DNA from: Bdellovibrio sp.
GTDB lineage: Bacteria; Bdellovibrionota; Bdellovibrionia; Bdellovibrionales; Bdellovibrionaceae
Direction of reading: 5' to 3'
DNA length: 38,298 nucleotides
NCBI GenBank assembly: GCA_046318155.1
Contig: JBKCUU010000122.1
Coordinates: 1-38,298 of the forward strand
The position numbers and the translations under genes are program-made. Under the pieces are notes generated by a model. It saw nothing but the letters and a program-made list of their open reading frames with translations, had not been told where the DNA came from and made no database searches. Below, in pieces: positions 17,778 to 28,949 of this stretch. Position 1 is the stretch's first letter. Every line of letters starts with the position of its first letter.

Positions 17778-18245
17778 ATGCGAGCGCCCCGCGTTCCCAA
17801 ATCGAAAAAAACCAGGACTCCCAAAAAAATAAAGGGCGAGAATCTGGGCCCCATTGACACTCGAACTCCCCTGATGTTTCGTGATGAGCTCCCGGCTGAA
17901 AAGCTCAAAGCAGCCAAAAAGATTTCGGATCTCCGAAATTTGGGCCCTACGATGGAAAAAGTCCTGTACAAAGCGGGAGTGAAAACTGTCGATCAGTTTG
18001 TCAAATTGGGTTGGCAAAAGGCGATGGGCCGCTTGATCTTGATTCACCCGCGTTATATGCACGCCATTTGCGCTTACGCACTCATTGGTGCCCTCAAGAA
18101 TGTGGACTGGAATCGCATTTCGCCCGGGGATAAAGCCGAGGCCCTTCAGTTGATGGCCAAACTTCGCCAAGAAAATCCGAAAAAGAAAAAAGCCAGAACC
18201 AAAACGGGGTCTCAGTCGCGGTCCAAAGTAGCGAAAAAGAAGTGA
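17778..18245 (+). CDS. TfoX/Sxy C-terminal-domain protein with Lys-rich tails
   Basis: ISDLRNLGPTMEKVLYKAGVKTVDQFVKLG...YALIGAL..VDW matches the TfoX_C pattern. Confidence 0.75.
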   Translation: MRAPRVPKSKKTRTPKKIKGENLGPIDTRTPLMFRDELPAEKLKAAKKISDLRNLGPTMEKVLYKAGVKTVDQFVKLGWQKAMGRLILIHPRYMHAICAYALIGALKNVDWNRISPGDKAEALQLMAKLRQENPKKKKARTKTGSQSRSKVAKKK

Positions 18246-19956: not shown

Positions 19957-20667
19957 TTAGGCCGCCGATTTACGAATAGAGTCGAGCTTTTCTTTCATCG
20001 TTTGGAGCTGCTGTTTCAAGAGTTGGTTTTCTTGTGTCAGTGCCACGATTTTCTTGCGCAGCATTTGCAGCTCTTCTGAGGAAGGGCGTCCGGAAGAGGA
20101 GCCACCAGCCGCCGCGCTCGATTGAAGGCCGCTCGAGGTTCCTTCAAAAGCGGCTTCGATTTCTTTGTTGGTCGGCGGGCTGCCGCTATGACCCGCATTC
20201 AAAAGGTCTTCGATGTTTTCTGGAATAACTAAGTCGGGATCAACTTTTTCGAACTTGAGCGCCCCTTGAGCCGCCATGCCGCGGATTTCGTTGATGATCT
20301 TGATCTGACTAGACGCGCTCTCGCCTGGGTTTGGTTTCTTTTCTTTTAAAAGATCTTCGGCCTTGCGTCGTTCGGAAAAAGGCATCGCCCCCAAAAAAAC
20401 CTGCTGTTTCTCGGGATTCATCAACCCGATCGCACTGGCGATCACATTGGGCGTGAGGCGCGGCATAACTTCCATGAGATAGGATTGATTCCATGTTGAC
20501 AGGCGATCAAGTGAGATGGATTTTTTTCGGATCTCAGCCTCCCAAGCGGGATTTTCTTCTGCGATCATCTGCAAAAATTTTTGCGCTTTGGCGGGGGCCG
20601 TCGTCTCAATCAAGTTCAGGAGCTGAATGAAACCGCCTTTTTTTTTATACCGATTAATCATTGACAT
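19957..20667 (-). CDS. FliG C-terminal-like domain protein with C-terminal coiled coil
   Basis: The segment from IAEENPAWEAEIRKKSISLDRL to SQIKIINEIRGM resembles the FliG middle/C domain; SD AAGGAG. Confidence 0.6.
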   Translation of the reverse strand: MSMINRYKKKGGFIQLLNLIETTAPAKAQKFLQMIAEENPAWEAEIRKKSISLDRLSTWNQSYLMEVMPRLTPNVIASAIGLMNPEKQQVFLGAMPFSERRKAEDLLKEKKPNPGESASSQIKIINEIRGMAAQGALKFEKVDPDLVIPENIEDLLNAGHSGSPPTNKEIEAAFEGTSSGLQSSAAAGGSSSGRPSSEELQMLRKKIVALTQENQLLKQQLQTMKEKLDSIRKSAA

Positions 20668-23360: not shown

Positions 23361-24248
23361 TCATGGTCGATGCCACCGACGTTGCTGGCGAACGCGCCAG
23401 AGGTGAGCCATAATCAAGAGTGCCGCGACATACAGGGGTGACCAGAGCCGGGTCCCCAGACTCAATTTCTGAACACTCGGGACGAGCGTGCCCACTTGCA
23501 AAAGAATAAGATCCCAAACCCGATTCATCTCAGTCAGTACGCTCCATCCCGCGGGATAAAACAGTTCGGTCACGCCAATGGCAAACCACAAAGTCAAACT
23601 GGCGGGAGCCAGCAGCAAGCTGATCACAGCCAGCCAGGGACTGCTCACGGTCCATCCGGCCAGGAGCGGAGCCAAGAAAATCAAGATCACCAAAGCCCGG
23701 ATGACTTCATTCTTGACCTTGGGAACGAGCGCGATTCGAGCCGCGACCGAAAGATGAAGGGAACTCGACAAGATCCATTGCGGCTGCAATGCCAAACACC
23801 ACAACCAACTTTCGAGCACTCGGCGTTCAGTTGACTGGCGGCTCTGGCGAGAGCGCAGAGCTGGACGCATCGCCCACTCAAAAAAAGCCCTGACGACGGG
23901 AGGTTGCCAATTGCTCATGAAGGCAAAAACAAGGAGCACGGGAGGGATCAAAACTTTTGCAAGGCGTGCACCCAGAATCTTGCGCAAAGCCATTTCGAGA
24001 AAGGTTAGATGACTGCCCGAAACGACCAACAGGTGAAACAATCCAGATTCAATGTACAAGAGCCGCAGTTCGTGTGATGTGGGGGATTTGCCACAAAAAA
24101 GAGCGGCGTTTACATCATAATGGGCACTGCTTGACAGTTTTATCAGACAGATTTCGTGCATTGACTGGGCAAACCCTGCGAGAAGTTTGAGCAGGTTAAG
24201 TGAGTCTGGAAGTGCATGCGAGCTCAGCAGGAGCGCAAAAGTTGACAT
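23361..24248 (-). CDS. comEC: ComEC/Rec2-family competence membrane protein (core domain only)
   Basis: SGLFHLLVVSGSHL signature, PPVVRA, SSSLHLS and multiple TM helices. Confidence 0.8.
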   Translation of the reverse strand: MSTFALLLSSHALPDSLNLLKLLAGFAQSMHEICLIKLSSSAHYDVNAALFCGKSPTSHELRLLYIESGLFHLLVVSGSHLTFLEMALRKILGARLAKVLIPPVLLVFAFMSNWQPPVVRAFFEWAMRPALRSRQSRQSTERRVLESWLWCLALQPQWILSSSLHLSVAARIALVPKVKNEVIRALVILIFLAPLLAGWTVSSPWLAVISLLLAPASLTLWFAIGVTELFYPAGWSVLTEMNRVWDLILLQVGTLVPSVQKLSLGTRLWSPLYVAALLIMAHLWRVRQQRRWHRP

Positions 24249-24401
24249 GTCTCAAGGGCTTAGCAAATTCGATCGCAGCACCAACTCAAAACAGAGCTGA
24301 ACAGGCGCTCTTCTTGGCCCCAGATTCGGAAGCAAACAGAATGTTAGATTCTTAAAAAAGAAATTCTTATGCCTCTTATAAATGGCATTTTTATTTAGTG
24401 A

Positions 24402-24414
24402 TATCAACAACTTA
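24402..24414 (+). promoter_or_regulatory. IHF-binding consensus site
   Basis: TATCAACAACTTA is an exact WATCAANNNNTTR match, preceded by an AT-rich tract. Confidence 0.5.
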
Positions 24415-24500
24415 CTTCATGCTTCTGCTTTCAGCAAATCGCTGAAACCCTTGACCAGTCAATGGTCTAGGTCGGTCATCGTCATTCAATCCCCAAAAAA

Positions 24501-24509
24501 TGTGGATAA
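24501..24509 (-). promoter_or_regulatory. Perfect DnaA box
   Basis: TGTGGATAA is the reverse complement of TTATCCACA; intergenic. Confidence 0.5.
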
Positions 24510-24527
24510 CTTAAAGCGCTGAAGGTG

Positions 24528-24557
24528 TTGTCGTTTCATTAGACCTTGTGTCATCAT
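24528..24557 (+). promoter_or_regulatory. Putative sigma70 promoter of the TPR-LysM-dprA operon
   Basis: TTGTCG-N18-CATCAT with an extended -10 TG, 6 nt before ATG 24564; no SD. Confidence 0.45.
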
Positions 24558-24563
24558 TTTCTT

Positions 24564-25247
24564 ATGAAAATATTCATCTTGGTTTTCTCAAGCTTGCTTG
24601 TCTGTTGCGCACAATCCCCCGTCAAAAATCAAAAGACCGCACAGGCGTCGGTGCAAAAAAGTCCCATCGCCAAGTTGAATAAAAAGAGCGGCAAAACCAC
24701 AGTCCGAGCCGCAGCCGCGGACACGCAAGAGTTTAAGCGTGAGCAACAGATGGTGCTGCGGAGAAAACCAAGTTTAGCGACTCGTCCCCTCGCCGCCGCG
24801 GTGAATCCTCAGAACAAACGTTTGGTGCTTGACCTCAAATCAAACTTAAATGCCTCGCCAAATATTTCTGAAGCTAAGTTGATGGCAGAGCTTCAAGAGC
24901 AGTTTGATTTGAATAATGAAATTGGATTTCAATCGCGTTACCAAGCCTTTCAGCAAAGATTCCCCAAAAGTGGACGCATCAATGAAGCTCACTACATGGC
25001 GGGGTTACTGAGCCTCAGCTATAAAAACTACGGACGCGCGCTGAGATCCTTTGATGCCGTTCTTAAAAATCCACGCGGTCCTCAAGCTTCAAAAGCGATG
25101 TTCGCCAAAGCGATGACCTATCGACGCATGAATCTCGGTGAGCCTTCTAAGCAACTGTTGGTGCAAGTTCAGACTCGCTATCCAAAAACTCTTGAAGCGC
25201 AGCGCGCGGCGATTGAACTCAGAATCGCGGATAAACGGTTTCAATGA
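24564..25247 (+). CDS. TPR lipoprotein (CpoB/YbgF-like TPR domain)
   Basis: Leader MKIFILVFSSLLVCC; TPR units FQQRFPKS...AHYMAG, AMFAKAMTY and VQTRYPKT.EA..A. Confidence 0.75.
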   Translation: MKIFILVFSSLLVCCAQSPVKNQKTAQASVQKSPIAKLNKKSGKTTVRAAAADTQEFKREQQMVLRRKPSLATRPLAAAVNPQNKRLVLDLKSNLNASPNISEAKLMAELQEQFDLNNEIGFQSRYQAFQQRFPKSGRINEAHYMAGLLSLSYKNYGRALRSFDAVLKNPRGPQASKAMFAKAMTYRRMNLGEPSKQLLVQVQTRYPKTLEAQRAAIELRIADKRFQ

Positions 25248-26626
25248 GCAGCGTAAAATCTCGGCTTCAGGTCAAAACACTCATCTTGGCTCTGAGTCTG
25301 GGAATGCCTCTTGTTGCCCGGGCTGAAGACGCTCCTGACTTAAAGCGCGAGCGCCGCCTTTTTCAGAATTACCAAATGTTTAACTTGAAGCCCACCGCAC
25401 AAGAGCAGTGGCAAGAAGCGATCTCGGGGGTCTCTGAGCAGAGTTATCAAATTCAGCAGGGTGATACCTTGTGGGACATCTCTGAAACCTTTTTTGGCGA
25501 TACGGAGTTTTGGCCAAAGATTTGGTCCCTCAACAAAGAGGGAATTTTTAATCCTCATGCCATCGAGCCCGGTGATCAGATCCAGTTTGTGCCGGGGACC
25601 TTAGGTGAAGCACCTAACTTTGGCGCATCGCCTGGCGAGACGTCCGGCTCTGGCACATCTCTCGGCGATGCGCGTACGACAAACGAAAAAGATCAGCCTT
25701 TGACGGTCAGAGCCGGCTCGGGTGAAGACGCCGATCGAGTGGCGAAAGAATCCGACGCCATCAGGCAAAAAAAGCCCCAGTTTATCGAAGCGGATCTCTC
25801 GAATGTCGAACTGCCAACGCCGTTTGTTAAAAAGTCGGTGCGCGGGGCTGTCAATCTCCCTCAGAGTTTACCGACGTGGAAGATGCGAGTGAATGCAGAT
25901 CGGCAGTACCAATTCGAGATCCGTCCTGTTTCGCGCAATCCAGGCGCTTCTGAAATCACGCTCTTGTCTTATTTGTCTGAAGAAAATACGAATGCTATTG
26001 AGGGTGAGATCGTGGAGGCCGAAGCCGGAATGCATGCGGCTCATGACAATCAGTATGTTGTCGTCAAAGCCAAGGGTGCGGCCGCTGGACAAAAATTTCT
26101 CGTGATCCGCGATGCGGGCACTCTCAAGGCTGGCGAACGTGTGGGCACGATCCACCAGATCGACGGCGAAGTCACTCTGCAAGAAACCGTGAACGCGAGC
26201 GAAGGCCTTTACCGCGCGATCGTGAACCGAGCCTATTCGCCCGTTCTTGTTGGTTCAAAGTTGTCGAGCGGTGAAGTTCAGCGCGTAGTCGTTGATGATG
26301 CGGGCGTCGGTGGCGGCGGTTCTGATGGAGCGGCCAAAGTGCTCGGAGGTCCCGAAAGTGAATCTCGAGAAATTTTTGGACCCGGCCAACTTTTGTTTTT
26401 AGACGCGGGTGCGTCGGGTGGTTTGGCGCCAGGACAAACCCTGAATATTTATCGCCGTGAATCCTCGCGGACGGAGACCGAAACCAAACAGCTCGAAAAC
26501 CCACGCTTGATCGGAACGGTTCGCGTCCTTCAAACAAGCCCCGGTTTTGCGACGGCCTATGTCTCGTCAGCTATTGAAGCCATTCATGTCGGAGATTCGT
26601 CCAGCCGAGGTTCCCAGGTCAAATAA
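25244..26626 (+). CDS. LysM peptidoglycan-binding protein, TsaP-like
   Basis: Signal peptide; YQIQQGDTLWDISETFFGDTEFWPKIWSLN...NPHAIEPGD; C-terminal FLDAG..GL..GQ.LNIYR...IGTVRV; located upstream of dprA. Confidence 0.8.
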   Translation: MSSVKSRLQVKTLILALSLGMPLVARAEDAPDLKRERRLFQNYQMFNLKPTAQEQWQEAISGVSEQSYQIQQGDTLWDISETFFGDTEFWPKIWSLNKEGIFNPHAIEPGDQIQFVPGTLGEAPNFGASPGETSGSGTSLGDARTTNEKDQPLTVRAGSGEDADRVAKESDAIRQKKPQFIEADLSNVELPTPFVKKSVRGAVNLPQSLPTWKMRVNADRQYQFEIRPVSRNPGASEITLLSYLSEENTNAIEGEIVEAEAGMHAAHDNQYVVVKAKGAAAGQKFLVIRDAGTLKAGERVGTIHQIDGEVTLQETVNASEGLYRAIVNRAYSPVLVGSKLSSGEVQRVVVDDAGVGGGGSDGAAKVLGGPESESREIFGPGQLLFLDAGASGGLAPGQTLNIYRRESSRTETETKQLENPRLIGTVRVLQTSPGFATAYVSSAIEAIHVGDSSSRGSQVK

Positions 26627-26670
26627 GCACCAAAAGCAGCGGAGTCTGGCTCTTGAAGAGAGTCTTCGTT

Positions 26671-27603
26671 ATGACACGAGACTCTCTTTTCTATTTCGTT
26701 AGTTACTTGGCCGCTCACAAACTTCGCATGAATCAACAACATCGCGAACAATTGCTGCGCGCGTGGGAAAAGGGCTTGCGCCCAACCGTCCCGCAGTTTT
26801 TCAAGGTGCTCCCGGAGTTTCAAATTTTTGCAGACGCCAGCGGTGGCTTCTGGAGCCGCGGCGCCGATGAAATTGCCCGGTGGCAAGAGCGCGGAACCAG
26901 TTTTGTCAGTCCCGGTGAAGTGGGTTTTCCTCGTCGGCTGTTGCAAATGGACGAGCCGCCATGGGTGCTTGCCGTTCACGGGCCGTTGGATCTTTTGCAT
27001 GAACCTAGTCTGGCGGTGGTGGGAGCGCGCGAACCACTGGAAGGTTCACTGCACTGGATGCAGGAGCATTTGGGCTTTTTGCTTCAGCGCGCGCCGCTCC
27101 CGCTCGCCAGCGGAGGGGCCCGCGGCGTCGATCAAATGGCGCACCGACTTTGTTTGCGGTATGAACGCCCCACCTTGGTTTTTTTGCCCGCGGGCCTTGC
27201 CAATCTTTATCCCAAGTCAATGGAGCAGTGGAAATTGCCGGTGCTCCAGAGTGGCGGTGCATTTGTCAGCGAATTTCATCCCCGCGCGACGATGCGCAAG
27301 TGGCATTTTCAAATGCGCAACCGGCTGATTGCCGGCGTCTCCAAGTGCACGTTGGTGGTTGAGGCCCGCCACCGAAGTGGAACATGGCTGACTGCAAAGT
27401 TGGCCCTAGAGATGGGTCGGCCGCTGGGTGTTTTGCCCGGTTCTGCCATTGAGCCCCGGCAAAGTGGTAATCTGCTTTTGATCAACGAAGGCGCGACAAG
27501 TATTTGCGATGCTCAAGATCTTGTCATGTTTTTGAAAGGTGCTTGTCAGGATGACAAAACTCACGGCGCATCCCTAGGGCAAGCCACGCCTTCAATCCAC
27601 TAG
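26671..27603 (+). CDS. dprA: DNA-processing protein DprA (Smf)
   Basis: Motifs LAVVGAR, SGGARGVD, VSEF, F..RNRLIAG and VVEA..RSG..LTA; alternative TTG start at 26653. Confidence 0.92.
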   Translation: MTRDSLFYFVSYLAAHKLRMNQQHREQLLRAWEKGLRPTVPQFFKVLPEFQIFADASGGFWSRGADEIARWQERGTSFVSPGEVGFPRRLLQMDEPPWVLAVHGPLDLLHEPSLAVVGAREPLEGSLHWMQEHLGFLLQRAPLPLASGGARGVDQMAHRLCLRYERPTLVFLPAGLANLYPKSMEQWKLPVLQSGGAFVSEFHPRATMRKWHFQMRNRLIAGVSKCTLVVEARHRSGTWLTAKLALEMGRPLGVLPGSAIEPRQSGNLLLINEGATSICDAQDLVMFLKGACQDDKTHGASLGQATPSIH

Positions 27604-27668
27604 ATATGGGGGAGCATCTACTTTCTTGAGCTTAGATCAATGAAAGTGAAAAAATCTAAAAAAAGCCA

Positions 27669-27698
27669 TTGAGTTTTAGTCCCTTCGCTTTCTACAAT
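27669..27698 (+). promoter_or_regulatory. Sigma70-like promoter of the intergenic RNA
   Basis: TTGAGT-N18-TACAAT with an A-rich UP-like tract upstream; predicted start at about 27704-27706. Confidence 0.6.
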
Positions 27699-27704
27699 CT
27701 AGGA

Positions 27705-27777
27705 CAAGGGAGGGGCGATGTGGGTCACGGACGACCGACGTAGTAAGGACGCTACTGCATCGCTCTGTTTTTCTCTT
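27705..27777 (+). ncRNA. Structured RNA with two GGA-loop hairpins (TwoAYGGAY-like / candidate CsrA-binding sRNA)
   Basis: P1 27712-22/27756-66 (11 bp; its G-U pairs work only on the + strand) closes P2 GGTC-ACGGAC-GACC and P3 GTAGT-AAGGAC-GCTAC. Confidence 0.65.
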
Positions 27778-27786
27778 AAATACAAG

Positions 27787-27810
27787 CTGAAAATCAAACT
27801 GAAAATCAAA
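27787..27810 (+). repeat. 12-bp perfect tandem repeat
   Basis: CTGAAAATCAAA occurs twice in tandem. Confidence 0.9.
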
Positions 27811-27845
27811 TCACAATTGAAGTCTCTAAGAATCTAGGGCGTGTC

Positions 27846-28949
27846 CTAGTTCCAGATTTTTTTCAGGCGGTAAAGAGTAAAGCCGGCGAAGATCAGGTTG
27901 GGTATCCATAGTGCCAGCGCCACGGGCAACTGACCGCTTCGGGCGGCACCCTCAAGACTCACATACAAAATCCAATAAACAACGATCACGGCCAGACTTA
28001 AAATGAGTCCGTTTGATTTTATTCGGCGGTTGGTTTGCGTGCCAAGCCCGACGCCCAGGGCGCCTAAAATCACGCAGGCGATCGAGATGGCCCAGCGCTT
28101 GTGCAGTTCGGTCTTGAGAGTGCGGATCTCTTCGGGCTTTTTATCGCCCGGATTCTTAATTTTTTCTTGGACCTCTTCGATCGTCATCGACTGAGGTGAT
28201 TTTTCTCGCTGCTCGATCTGCACAGGATCGATCAGGCGGACGTCAAAATCTTCAAATTTAATTTTGGTGTGTGCTTCACCTTTGCGGTGAATGTCCCCGT
28301 CGGTCAGCTGCAGTAAGATCGACTGCCCCGGCTTGTGCGGATCCGGAATAATTCGGCCGGATTTTGCAATGATGGTCAAAGGCGAAGCGGGATCGCGCTC
28401 GTCGTAGATAAATATTTTTGTCAACTCGCCGCGCTGAGTGTCAACTTCGTTGGCGTAAACAACCAAGTCAAAAAAGCCTTCAGAAAAAGTGCCTTCTTTA
28501 AGGGTGGCGGTCGCCTTGGACTGGCCTAGCTCGTTGATCAAGATCTCGAACTGACGGTTGCCCCAGGGCGCTAAATGAAAAGATGTTTGGGCTGAAACCA
28601 CCGCGACGATAACGCTCAGGACGATGGCGGGAAGGATCAGCAAGCCTTGCGAGTAGCCTAAAGACTTGAGGGCCACGATCTCGGAGTCTTGGCTGAGCCG
28701 CCCGTAGGTGAGAACGACCGCAAACAACAAGGACATCGGAAAGAGGGCGGGTAAAAAGCTAATGGCAAGATACAGTACGATTTCGGCGATGACCTTGATC
28801 CCGATGCCATGGACCAAAAAAAACTCGGTCAGCCTAAGTGCCTGAAACATCAGCAAAATGAGGACAAACACGACAAGACCCAAAATCAGTCCAGGCCACA
28901 TTTCAAAAAACAAATACTGAGTGGCTTTGCGCCCAGCGAACAGATTCAT
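27846..28949 (-). CDS. lptF: LPS export ABC transporter permease LptF (YjgP/YjgQ family)
   Basis: PMSLLFAVVLTYGRLSQDSEIVALKSLG, 3+3 TM layout with a periplasmic beta domain, ELHKRWA and LWIPNL. Confidence 0.9.
   Translation of the reverse strand: MNLFAGRKATQYLFFEMWPGLILGLVVFVLILLMFQALRLTEFFLVHGIGIKVIAEIVLYLAISFLPALFPMSLLFAVVLTYGRLSQDSEIVALKSLGYSQGLLILPAIVLSVIVAVVSAQTSFHLAPWGNRQFEILINELGQSKATATLKEGTFSEGFFDLVVYANEVDTQRGELTKIFIYDERDPASPLTIIAKSGRIIPDPHKPGQSILLQLTDGDIHRKGEAHTKIKFEDFDVRLIDPVQIEQREKSPQSMTIEEVQEKIKNPGDKKPEEIRTLKTELHKRWAISIACVILGALGVGLGTQTNRRIKSNGLILSLAVIVVYWILYVSLEGAARSGQLPVALALWIPNLIFAGFTLYRLKKIWN

Follow-up and report, generated by a model that had tools for sequence, protein, structure and literature searches.

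A conserved intergenic element of the order Bdellovibrionales: a candidate minimal CsrA-antagonist RNA, preceded in Bdellovibrionaceae by an NrdR-type operator

The intergenic element found between dprA and lptF in Bdellovibrio sp. is very probably a conserved, uncatalogued, order-wide gene for a structured RNA. The RNA is spread over five families of the order at several loci, a distribution that was not in the initial annotation of this DNA. Our preferred reading, held with moderate confidence and drawn from sequence comparison, is that of a minimal CsrA-antagonist RNA, single-copy and order-wide, which in Bdellovibrionaceae is probably controlled by NrdR. The RNA most likely acts like a minimal Csr sponge and is a member of neither the TwoAYGGAY nor the Csr/Rsm families.

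A 2020 review leaves it undecided whether there is any species in which FliW and small RNAs jointly act on CsrA (PMC7652899); in a 2026 paper, FliW organisms are still described as lacking CsrA-sponge RNAs (PMC13407953). The candidate sponge sits in a culturable, genetically tractable predator with a functional CsrA that has been implicated in predation (PMC13443453), and the NrdR-type operator provides a testable input for the unexplained switch from the replicating growth phase to the flagellated attack phase. If the reading is true, DNA replication would be linked to flagellum production via the dNTP sensor NrdR and the translation regulator CsrA, and the NrdR regulon would extend to a regulatory RNA whose control site is remote and in helical phase with the promoter.

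In the window, that is, the whole stretch of 38,298 nucleotides analysed (contig JBKCUU010000122.1, forward strand), the open reading frames and domain matches place dprA (+) upstream of the element and lptF (-) convergent with it; the location between these two convergent genes given by the initial annotation is borne out by the matches to PF02481 and PF03739. The annotation had also described a promoter TTGAGT-N18-TACAAT, a three-way junction, two hexaloops and a U-tract, and direct reading places all of them where they had been reported. The parts of the locus are as follows.

26653..27603, + strand: dprA, the upstream neighbour (PF02481, E 5.8e-54); its stop codon lies inside the strong NrdR-type box
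27565..27580, no strand: weak partner NrdR-type box (score -8.3), in the last dprA codons; keeps A6, T11 and G13, not C4
27597..27612, no strand: strong NrdR-type box of the CACTA-N4-TAGTG family; C4, A6, T11 and G13 all present
27640..27665, + strand: phased A-tracts, conserved, separating the operator from the -35; they resemble an UP element or a DNA bend
27669..27674, + strand: -35 hexamer TTGAGT, read from the sequence; 18-bp spacer to the -10
27693..27698, + strand: -10 hexamer TACAAT, read from the sequence
27706..27772, + strand: predicted small RNA of ~67 nt; start placed at 27705-27707 and end within the U-tract, both by inference
27706..27711, + strand: single-stranded 5' leader AAGGGA, a third GGA site; RBS-like
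27712..27722, + strand: P1 5' arm; core CGATG/CATCG near-invariant across the order
27723..27736, + strand: P2 hairpin, loop ACGGAC at 27727-27732
27740..27755, + strand: P3 hairpin, loop AAGGAC at 27745-27750
27756..27766, + strand: P1 3' arm; C/U exchanges preserve G-C or G-U pairs on the + strand
27768..27777, + strand: U-rich tract (U-tract proper 27768-27772); with P1, probable intrinsic terminator
27846..28949, - strand: lptF (LptF/LptG permease), the convergent neighbour (PF03739)

Across the aligned loci, the A-tracts are conserved to the extent that A is found at 85-99% at positions -53 to -49 relative to P1. P1 and the U-rich tract are probably the intrinsic terminator of the predicted RNA; a simple terminator scan of the window did not call the U-tract and P1 as a terminator. 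Elsewhere in the window, positions 23361-27603 form a competence cluster, with a ComEC-type gene (-) divergent from an ORF of unassigned function, a LysM protein and dprA (+). Behind ruvCAB, at 17778-18245, is a gene with a TfoX C-terminal domain, and a lone FliG C-terminal domain match was found in the ORF at 19957-20667, outside any flagellar operon.

The + strand of the element takes the three-way-junction shape with a z score of -2.9 (3 of 200 shuffles as good), and the - strand has no comparable fold (z -0.8); the signal is weaker (z -1.56) when the folded segment also takes in promoter sequence (36 nt) and 3' flank (20 nt). A strict descriptor, defined as two ANGGAN hairpins closed by a stem of at least 8 pairs, matched one site in the 2.75-Mb genome and none in each of 12 Markov-3 control genomes, while a looser one adds a single genome site, which folds differently. 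The four G-U pairs that had been noted in the 11-bp P1 were seen, and the + strand orientation deduced from them agrees with the fold and with the C/U exchanges. The 11-bp P1 itself is correct for this genome but not as a general feature: it reflects a 1-nt insertion specific to this genus, the family form having a 9-bp P1 and a 6-bp P3. The suggested extension of P1 by pairing of AAGGGA with TCTCTT was not upheld, as these positions are unpaired in the consensus of 83 sequences.

Conservation of the loops is judged from loci chosen by synteny, because in the first alignment 59 of the 83 rows had come in through a search pattern in which loops and P1 core were already fixed. For the synteny set, 30 loci were picked by lptF similarity alone, 27 of them from Bdellovibrionaceae, with an anchor consisting of the 5' leader and P1 arm only, loops not included. 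The complete element is present in 25 of the 27 family loci, the remaining two being cut by contig ends, and both loops read ANGGAN in all 25. The GGA loops are therefore kept alongside the stems, contrary to what the initial annotation had expected of a plain terminator. On the 83-sequence alignment, RNAalifold yields the same three-way-junction structure, with 98.9% of cells paired and five pairs showing changes on both sides; this pairing level was reached by none of 500 shuffles and slid controls gave 32-65%, although the rows are related sequences, so that the shuffle controls overstate significance. The comparison of dprA-lptF intergenic regions that had been proposed thus revealed covarying stems, as judged by RNAalifold and by counts of pair changes against shuffles, together with conserved loops. 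In the P1 3' arm, C and U alternate at positions facing invariant G's, in agreement with the + strand being the one that pairs. Moreover, the leader GGA, a third site that the initial annotation had overlooked and that was not fixed by the search pattern, is invariant in 83/83 aligned sequences. In 108 of 114 sequences, 18 nt separate the last two GGA motifs. Among divergent sequences, 8 of 50 have a single GGA between the P1 arms, including several lineages with ordinary CsrA and fliW, and the single-sequence folds of many divergent members lack two clean loops. One longer variant (L194, G118:C217) carries an extra GGA-bearing hairpin inserted between P2 and P3.

A species-level genome collection scanned by pattern gave at least 119 matches. 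Among the 80 matches listed, the labels are almost only Bdellovibrionota, with three named B. bacteriovorus strains among them, and a convergent lptF is the neighbour in 75 of these 80; two pattern matches with no leader or stems (L066 and L137) were left out of the alignment, and neither matches the final covariance model. A first covariance model found a strong match in 93 of 150 genomes of the order, and a second one, rebuilt after adding 56 divergent matches (strong meaning E at most 1.2e-5), in 98 of 150, with one match per genome. Strong matches were distributed over the RNA's own family (36/37 genomes) and four others (2/2, 21/22, 28/37 and 11/26); there was none in eight small families of the order, and across 120 genomes from the phylum's other orders no match fell below E 0.002. 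A P1-only pattern applied to the 150 order genomes added, among the matches listed, no further member with a GGA from the families that the model had not matched, and a viral scan returned two matches, of 24 and 15 bits and with P2/P3 broken, which were treated as chance. In the only genome of the family without a model match (G032, L245), dprA is not beside lptF in the stretch examined, and csrA, fliW and nrdR are kept.

In three of the other families the RNA adjoins neither dprA nor lptF. The neighbours at other loci, for which 48 flanking frames were scanned, vary and are found in either orientation, often with a histidine-phosphatase gene downstream. The predicted promoter, the three-way junction and the U-tract are kept when the RNA occupies these other loci. 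A TTG-spacer-TANNNT-like promoter pattern occurs at the right distance in 97/112 and 46/50 loci, against 24/541 and 9/246 control windows, the pattern having been loosened after inspection of the data. Having its own predicted promoter and differing neighbours in either orientation, the RNA is therefore regarded as a probable free-standing unit and not as a terminator or leader of its neighbours. In two other families, it often lies just upstream of a same-strand gene of the histidine-phosphatase family (L191, L194-L196, L202-L204, L211, L232, L239).

As for the protein partner, the initial annotation had asked for csrA and fliW in the genome; both are present and adjacent to each other. Throughout the order, csrA is found in 97 of the 98 RNA-positive genomes and fliW in 92, but the co-occurrence of csrA and the RNA is weak evidence because csrA is present in 142 of the 150 order genomes overall; an RNA match is absent from 45 csrA-positive genomes of the order and from 106 of other orders. 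The one RNA-positive genome without a csrA match (G067) has flagellins and is missing both adjacent genes, which suggests an assembly gap. CsrA is reported to bridge sites 10-63 nt apart, with an optimum above 18 nt (PMC7652899), and the 18-nt GGA spacing of the RNA stands at the lower edge of the reported optimum for one-dimer bridging. Furthermore, B. bacteriovorus CsrA represses a B. subtilis hag reporter (PMC13443453), and B. bacteriovorus csrA has been implicated in predation, as cited second-hand in the same paper. The csrA leader of this genome (G000:C50:27990-28055) folds into a hairpin with the loop ACGGAA beside the RBS, and five other csrA leaders (L313, L314, L315, L317, L319) have a conserved GGAT motif, CTTTGAC-n-GGATGTTGAAG, just 5' of the RBS, which suggests possible csrA autoregulation across the order. 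Flagellin leaders are GGA-rich, in part from the RBS itself, in a count made without a control. In four small Bdellovibrionales genomes that have no match to flagellin or fliW (G108, G112, G124 and G161; L302-L306, L219, L223, L241), csrA has diverged, CsrA H43 is changed and the RNA loops have decayed; these genomes represent a natural experiment on the roles of CsrA and the RNA without flagella. The residue concerned, H43, is a residue of the CsrA pocket; this histidine, next to R44, has been lost. Overall, the RNA is quite likely to bind CsrA, and CsrA antagonism is, with somewhat less assurance, proposed as its main role.

The main job of a real RNA could also be performed through the invariant P1 or the G-rich 5' end, by binding another protein, acting as a ribosome decoy or pairing with mRNA, with CsrA as a stabiliser or matchmaker. 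The P1 core is near-invariant across the order in the model-fitted alignment, while P2, P3 and their loops vary, non-flagellated and some ordinary genomes retain the RNA with one GGA loop or none, and the 5' end of the RNA reads as an RBS followed by AUG, the sole variant seen being GUG. Nevertheless, A-N-G-G-A with a free N is kept in both loops of the family loci that were not loop-selected (25/25), the AUG is buried in a stable helix and no conserved peptide follows it, and this role is considered rather unlikely. The lineages with one GGA and ordinary CsrA, together with the unchanging P1 core, make a second ligand possible, since a pure CsrA decoy does not explain P1. Translation of a short peptide from AGGGAG-N5-AUG at the 5' end is hardly credible: even though neither the RBS-like motif nor the AUG varies within the family, and the majority frame stays open for ~18 codons, 28 of 164 sequences have stops inside the element (at codon 2 in six of them), some lengths change the frame, that of this genome included, and variability is equal at the three codon positions (0.33/0.29/0.33). 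A peptide gene is largely refuted by these stops, frame changes and flat variation. It is likewise very improbable that the element is a mere terminator for dprA/lptF or a mobile TwoAYGGAY/REP-like repeat. Its location between convergent genes, the U's that follow and the dispersed family of twin-GGA repeats in the genome would agree with such an origin, but the predicted promoter is kept at loci with neighbours in either orientation, and the dispersed repeats do not match the RNA's model; the plain terminator and the mobile repeat were rejected on account of the own promoter, the other loci, the single copy and the conserved loops.

With CsrA antagonism as the preferred role, control of the RNA can be considered. 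In Bdellovibrionaceae, a pair of NrdR-type boxes 32 bp apart is located ~95-140 bp upstream of the predicted RNA start, an operator that the initial annotation missed. Of 108 loci obtained by pattern or synteny, 87 match the palindrome CACTA-N4-TAGTG at 8/10 or more, compared with 6% of shuffles; among RNA loci of other families, 2 of 49 do. Intergenic DNA of this genome has a single perfect copy, which lies before a ribonucleotide reductase (RNR) gene; among five complete relatives, with one to four perfect copies per genome, four have one at the RNA locus. An operator matrix built from 85 RNA-upstream boxes (the window box being in the training set and the RNR site not) ranked the RNR-gene site first and the window box second genome-wide, and scored 12.3-24.1 before the main RNR gene in 23/23 relatives and at most 5.3 downstream. 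Second RNR genes have no strong upstream box at 6 of 7 loci, the seventh match being 345 bp before the matched domain and probably in a coding region. The weaker partner box at 32 bp occurs in both the RNA and the RNR sets, with a signal peaking exactly at that spacing; in this genome it is weak (score -8.3). As a motif, the box pair of the RNA is identical in kind to that of the main RNR gene, and nrdR is present in this genome and in 36/36 family relatives. A further 8/10 match in the window, at 24537, overlaps the start of an ORF of the competence cluster and is possibly due to chance.

The distance from the strong box to P1 is 111-118 bp in 51 of 70 loci, with the other 19 near -104, -126, -137, -146 and -156. 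These distances step by one helical turn, and none of 20,000 random draws was as phased, bearing in mind that relatives are not independent and that some far values may be the partner box. The strong box ends ~57 bp upstream of the -35, with no overlap with the RNA promoter. At RNR genes the promoter is just upstream of the boxes, as for repression; at RNA loci a promoter in that position is found in 14/89 (forward) and 3/89 (reverse), and the sole conserved promoter at the dprA-lptF locus is the RNA's own, ~100 bp downstream of the box. Control of the RNA promoter by NrdR is considered probable. The distal, phased position would be activator-like, with Pseudomonas aeruginosa topA, which NrdR activates, as precedent (PMC4409342); activation is only slightly favoured over repression, the choice being near a coin toss, and the position is also compatible with repression through a bend in the DNA or with the blocking of transcription that reads through from dprA. 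It is also conceivable, if less probable, that the RNA is a CsrA decoy, an arm shared with the preferred reading, and that the NrdR-type site serves something else: it could block read-through from the dprA operon, belong to a hidden promoter, upstream or antisense, or be a relic. In favour of this, the site is confined to the dprA-lptF locus, where it stands ~60 bp ahead of the -35 and not, as at RNR genes, on the promoter, and the box often overlaps the dprA stop. Against this, its distance to the RNA is tight and helically stepped (sd 9 bp) while that to the dprA stop is scattered (sd 23 bp), RNR-like promoter positions are as infrequent as given above, and, in the loci examined, the dprA ends of other-family genomes in which the RNA sits elsewhere have no strong box (best score 5.6). 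An origin of the site as a relic of a dprA-topA arrangement was also considered and found no support, topA being on another contig and dprA having no strong box nearby in the other-family loci examined.

Under NrdR control of a CsrA antagonist, a sigma-70-type promoter would make the RNA and P1 and the U-tract would end the transcript. Its two GGA loops would fill the two RNA pockets of one CsrA dimer, and the sequestration of CsrA would free GGA-rich leaders, for example those of flagellins and of csrA itself. More weakly inferred, dATP-loaded NrdR would bind ~95-140 bp upstream and stimulate the RNA promoter; towards the end of growth, NrdR would switch RNR off while increasing the amount of the RNA, so that leaders would be freed as progeny build flagella. 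CsrA would thus be released as replication ends inside the prey, leading to flagellin translation, with the RNA acting alongside FliW. NrdR is reported to bind DNA when dATP rises (PMC13584703), and in strain HD100 the transcripts of the class I nrd genes and of nrdR (0.5 vs 268 RPKM for nrdR) belong to the growth phase and that of the main flagellin to the attack phase (PMC3627812). The whole chain, from NrdR about ten turns upstream, through a two-site RNA and CsrA titration alongside FliW, to flagellin at the end of replication, is a tentative proposal, possible rather than probable. If true, it would mean that an organism with FliW also has an RNA antagonist of CsrA and that NrdR controls a regulatory RNA; no published case of either was found.

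With regard to expression, the B. bacteriovorus locus L063 used as query gave only small shares in sequencing runs. Of 12 runs, four were examined: three had one or two contigs, with a depth of ~4 and running past the element into unrelated flanks, and one had none, such contigs being blind to ends, strand and level. Strain HD100 would carry the element, judging from three other named B. bacteriovorus strains. Its Bd2471-Bd2472 (lptF-dprA) gap, 2,374,931-2,375,102, is not among the eight HD100 attack-phase sRNAs of a screen that kept only attack-enriched regions (PMC3627812).

Several known systems can be compared with this RNA. No description of it, or of an NrdR-controlled CsrA RNA, was found in print, in line with its being called undescribed in the initial annotation; subscription journals are thinly covered by this search, and the supplements of bioRxiv 10.64898/2026.09.22.753630 may list Bdellovibrionota matches. 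Other intergenic small RNAs of the same organism family, merRNA and APsRNA1-7 (PMC3627812) and the bd0103-bd0108 sRNA (PMC3818213), have no HD100 coordinate inside the Bd2471-Bd2472 gap. The likeness to TwoAYGGAY (RF01731) asserted by the initial annotation holds for topology, two sequential hairpins on a common basal stem, and fails for loop sequence and covariance-model match. RF01731 gave no match at E<=10 in 27500-27950, in five relatives or in 8 related loci, its genome search matching two other sites only, and just 57 of 230 GGA contexts are AYGGAY, AAGGAT being the commonest (99). Furthermore, TwoAYGGAY as described (PMC2864571; bioRxiv 10.64898/2026.09.22.753630) has tens of dispersed, mobile-like copies and a long or extended basal stem and belongs to a different phylum, whereas the RNA here is single copy, with a promoter, a U-tract and a short 9-bp basal stem. 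Membership of TwoAYGGAY is contradicted by the missing RF01731 match, the ANGGAN loops and the single copy. The genome also contains a separate dispersed family of ~9 copies, with two GGA-loop hairpins on perfect 40-60 bp basal stems whose sequence differs between copies (G000:C80:2519-2671, L003; C23:55541-55687, L004; related copies on C23, C93, C3, C82 and C41). With RF01731, two copies reach 29-37 bits and so stay under the cut-off of 43; the family looks like mobile TwoAYGGAY-like repeats.

Among the other Rfam families, no match reached the gathering score in the window, where three chance matches near E 3-9 were found locally, and there was none in 8 related loci; homology to the Csr/Rsm families was found in neither. 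The resemblance to CsrB/CsrC and RsmX/Y/Z (PMC7652899) consists of GGA motifs in short hairpin loops, csrA in the genome and a predicted stand-alone small RNA. In contrast to them, two loop sites and one leader site are held here in a closed three-way junction, and the upstream element recognised here is NrdR-like, those sponges being activated by BarA-UvrY/GacS-GacA. The RNA also co-occurs with fliW, which is reported to be absent from Gammaproteobacteria, the hosts of the CsrB/Rsm sponges (PMC7652899). Finally, the operator shares with the NrdR operators described (PMC13584703; PMC12051234) two 16-bp partial palindromes with a 16-bp linker, C4, A6, T11 and G13 being kept in the strong box; the known operators, as far as these sources describe them, overlap the polymerase site, whereas the box pair here lies ~95-140 bp upstream of the predicted start and precedes a non-coding RNA gene.
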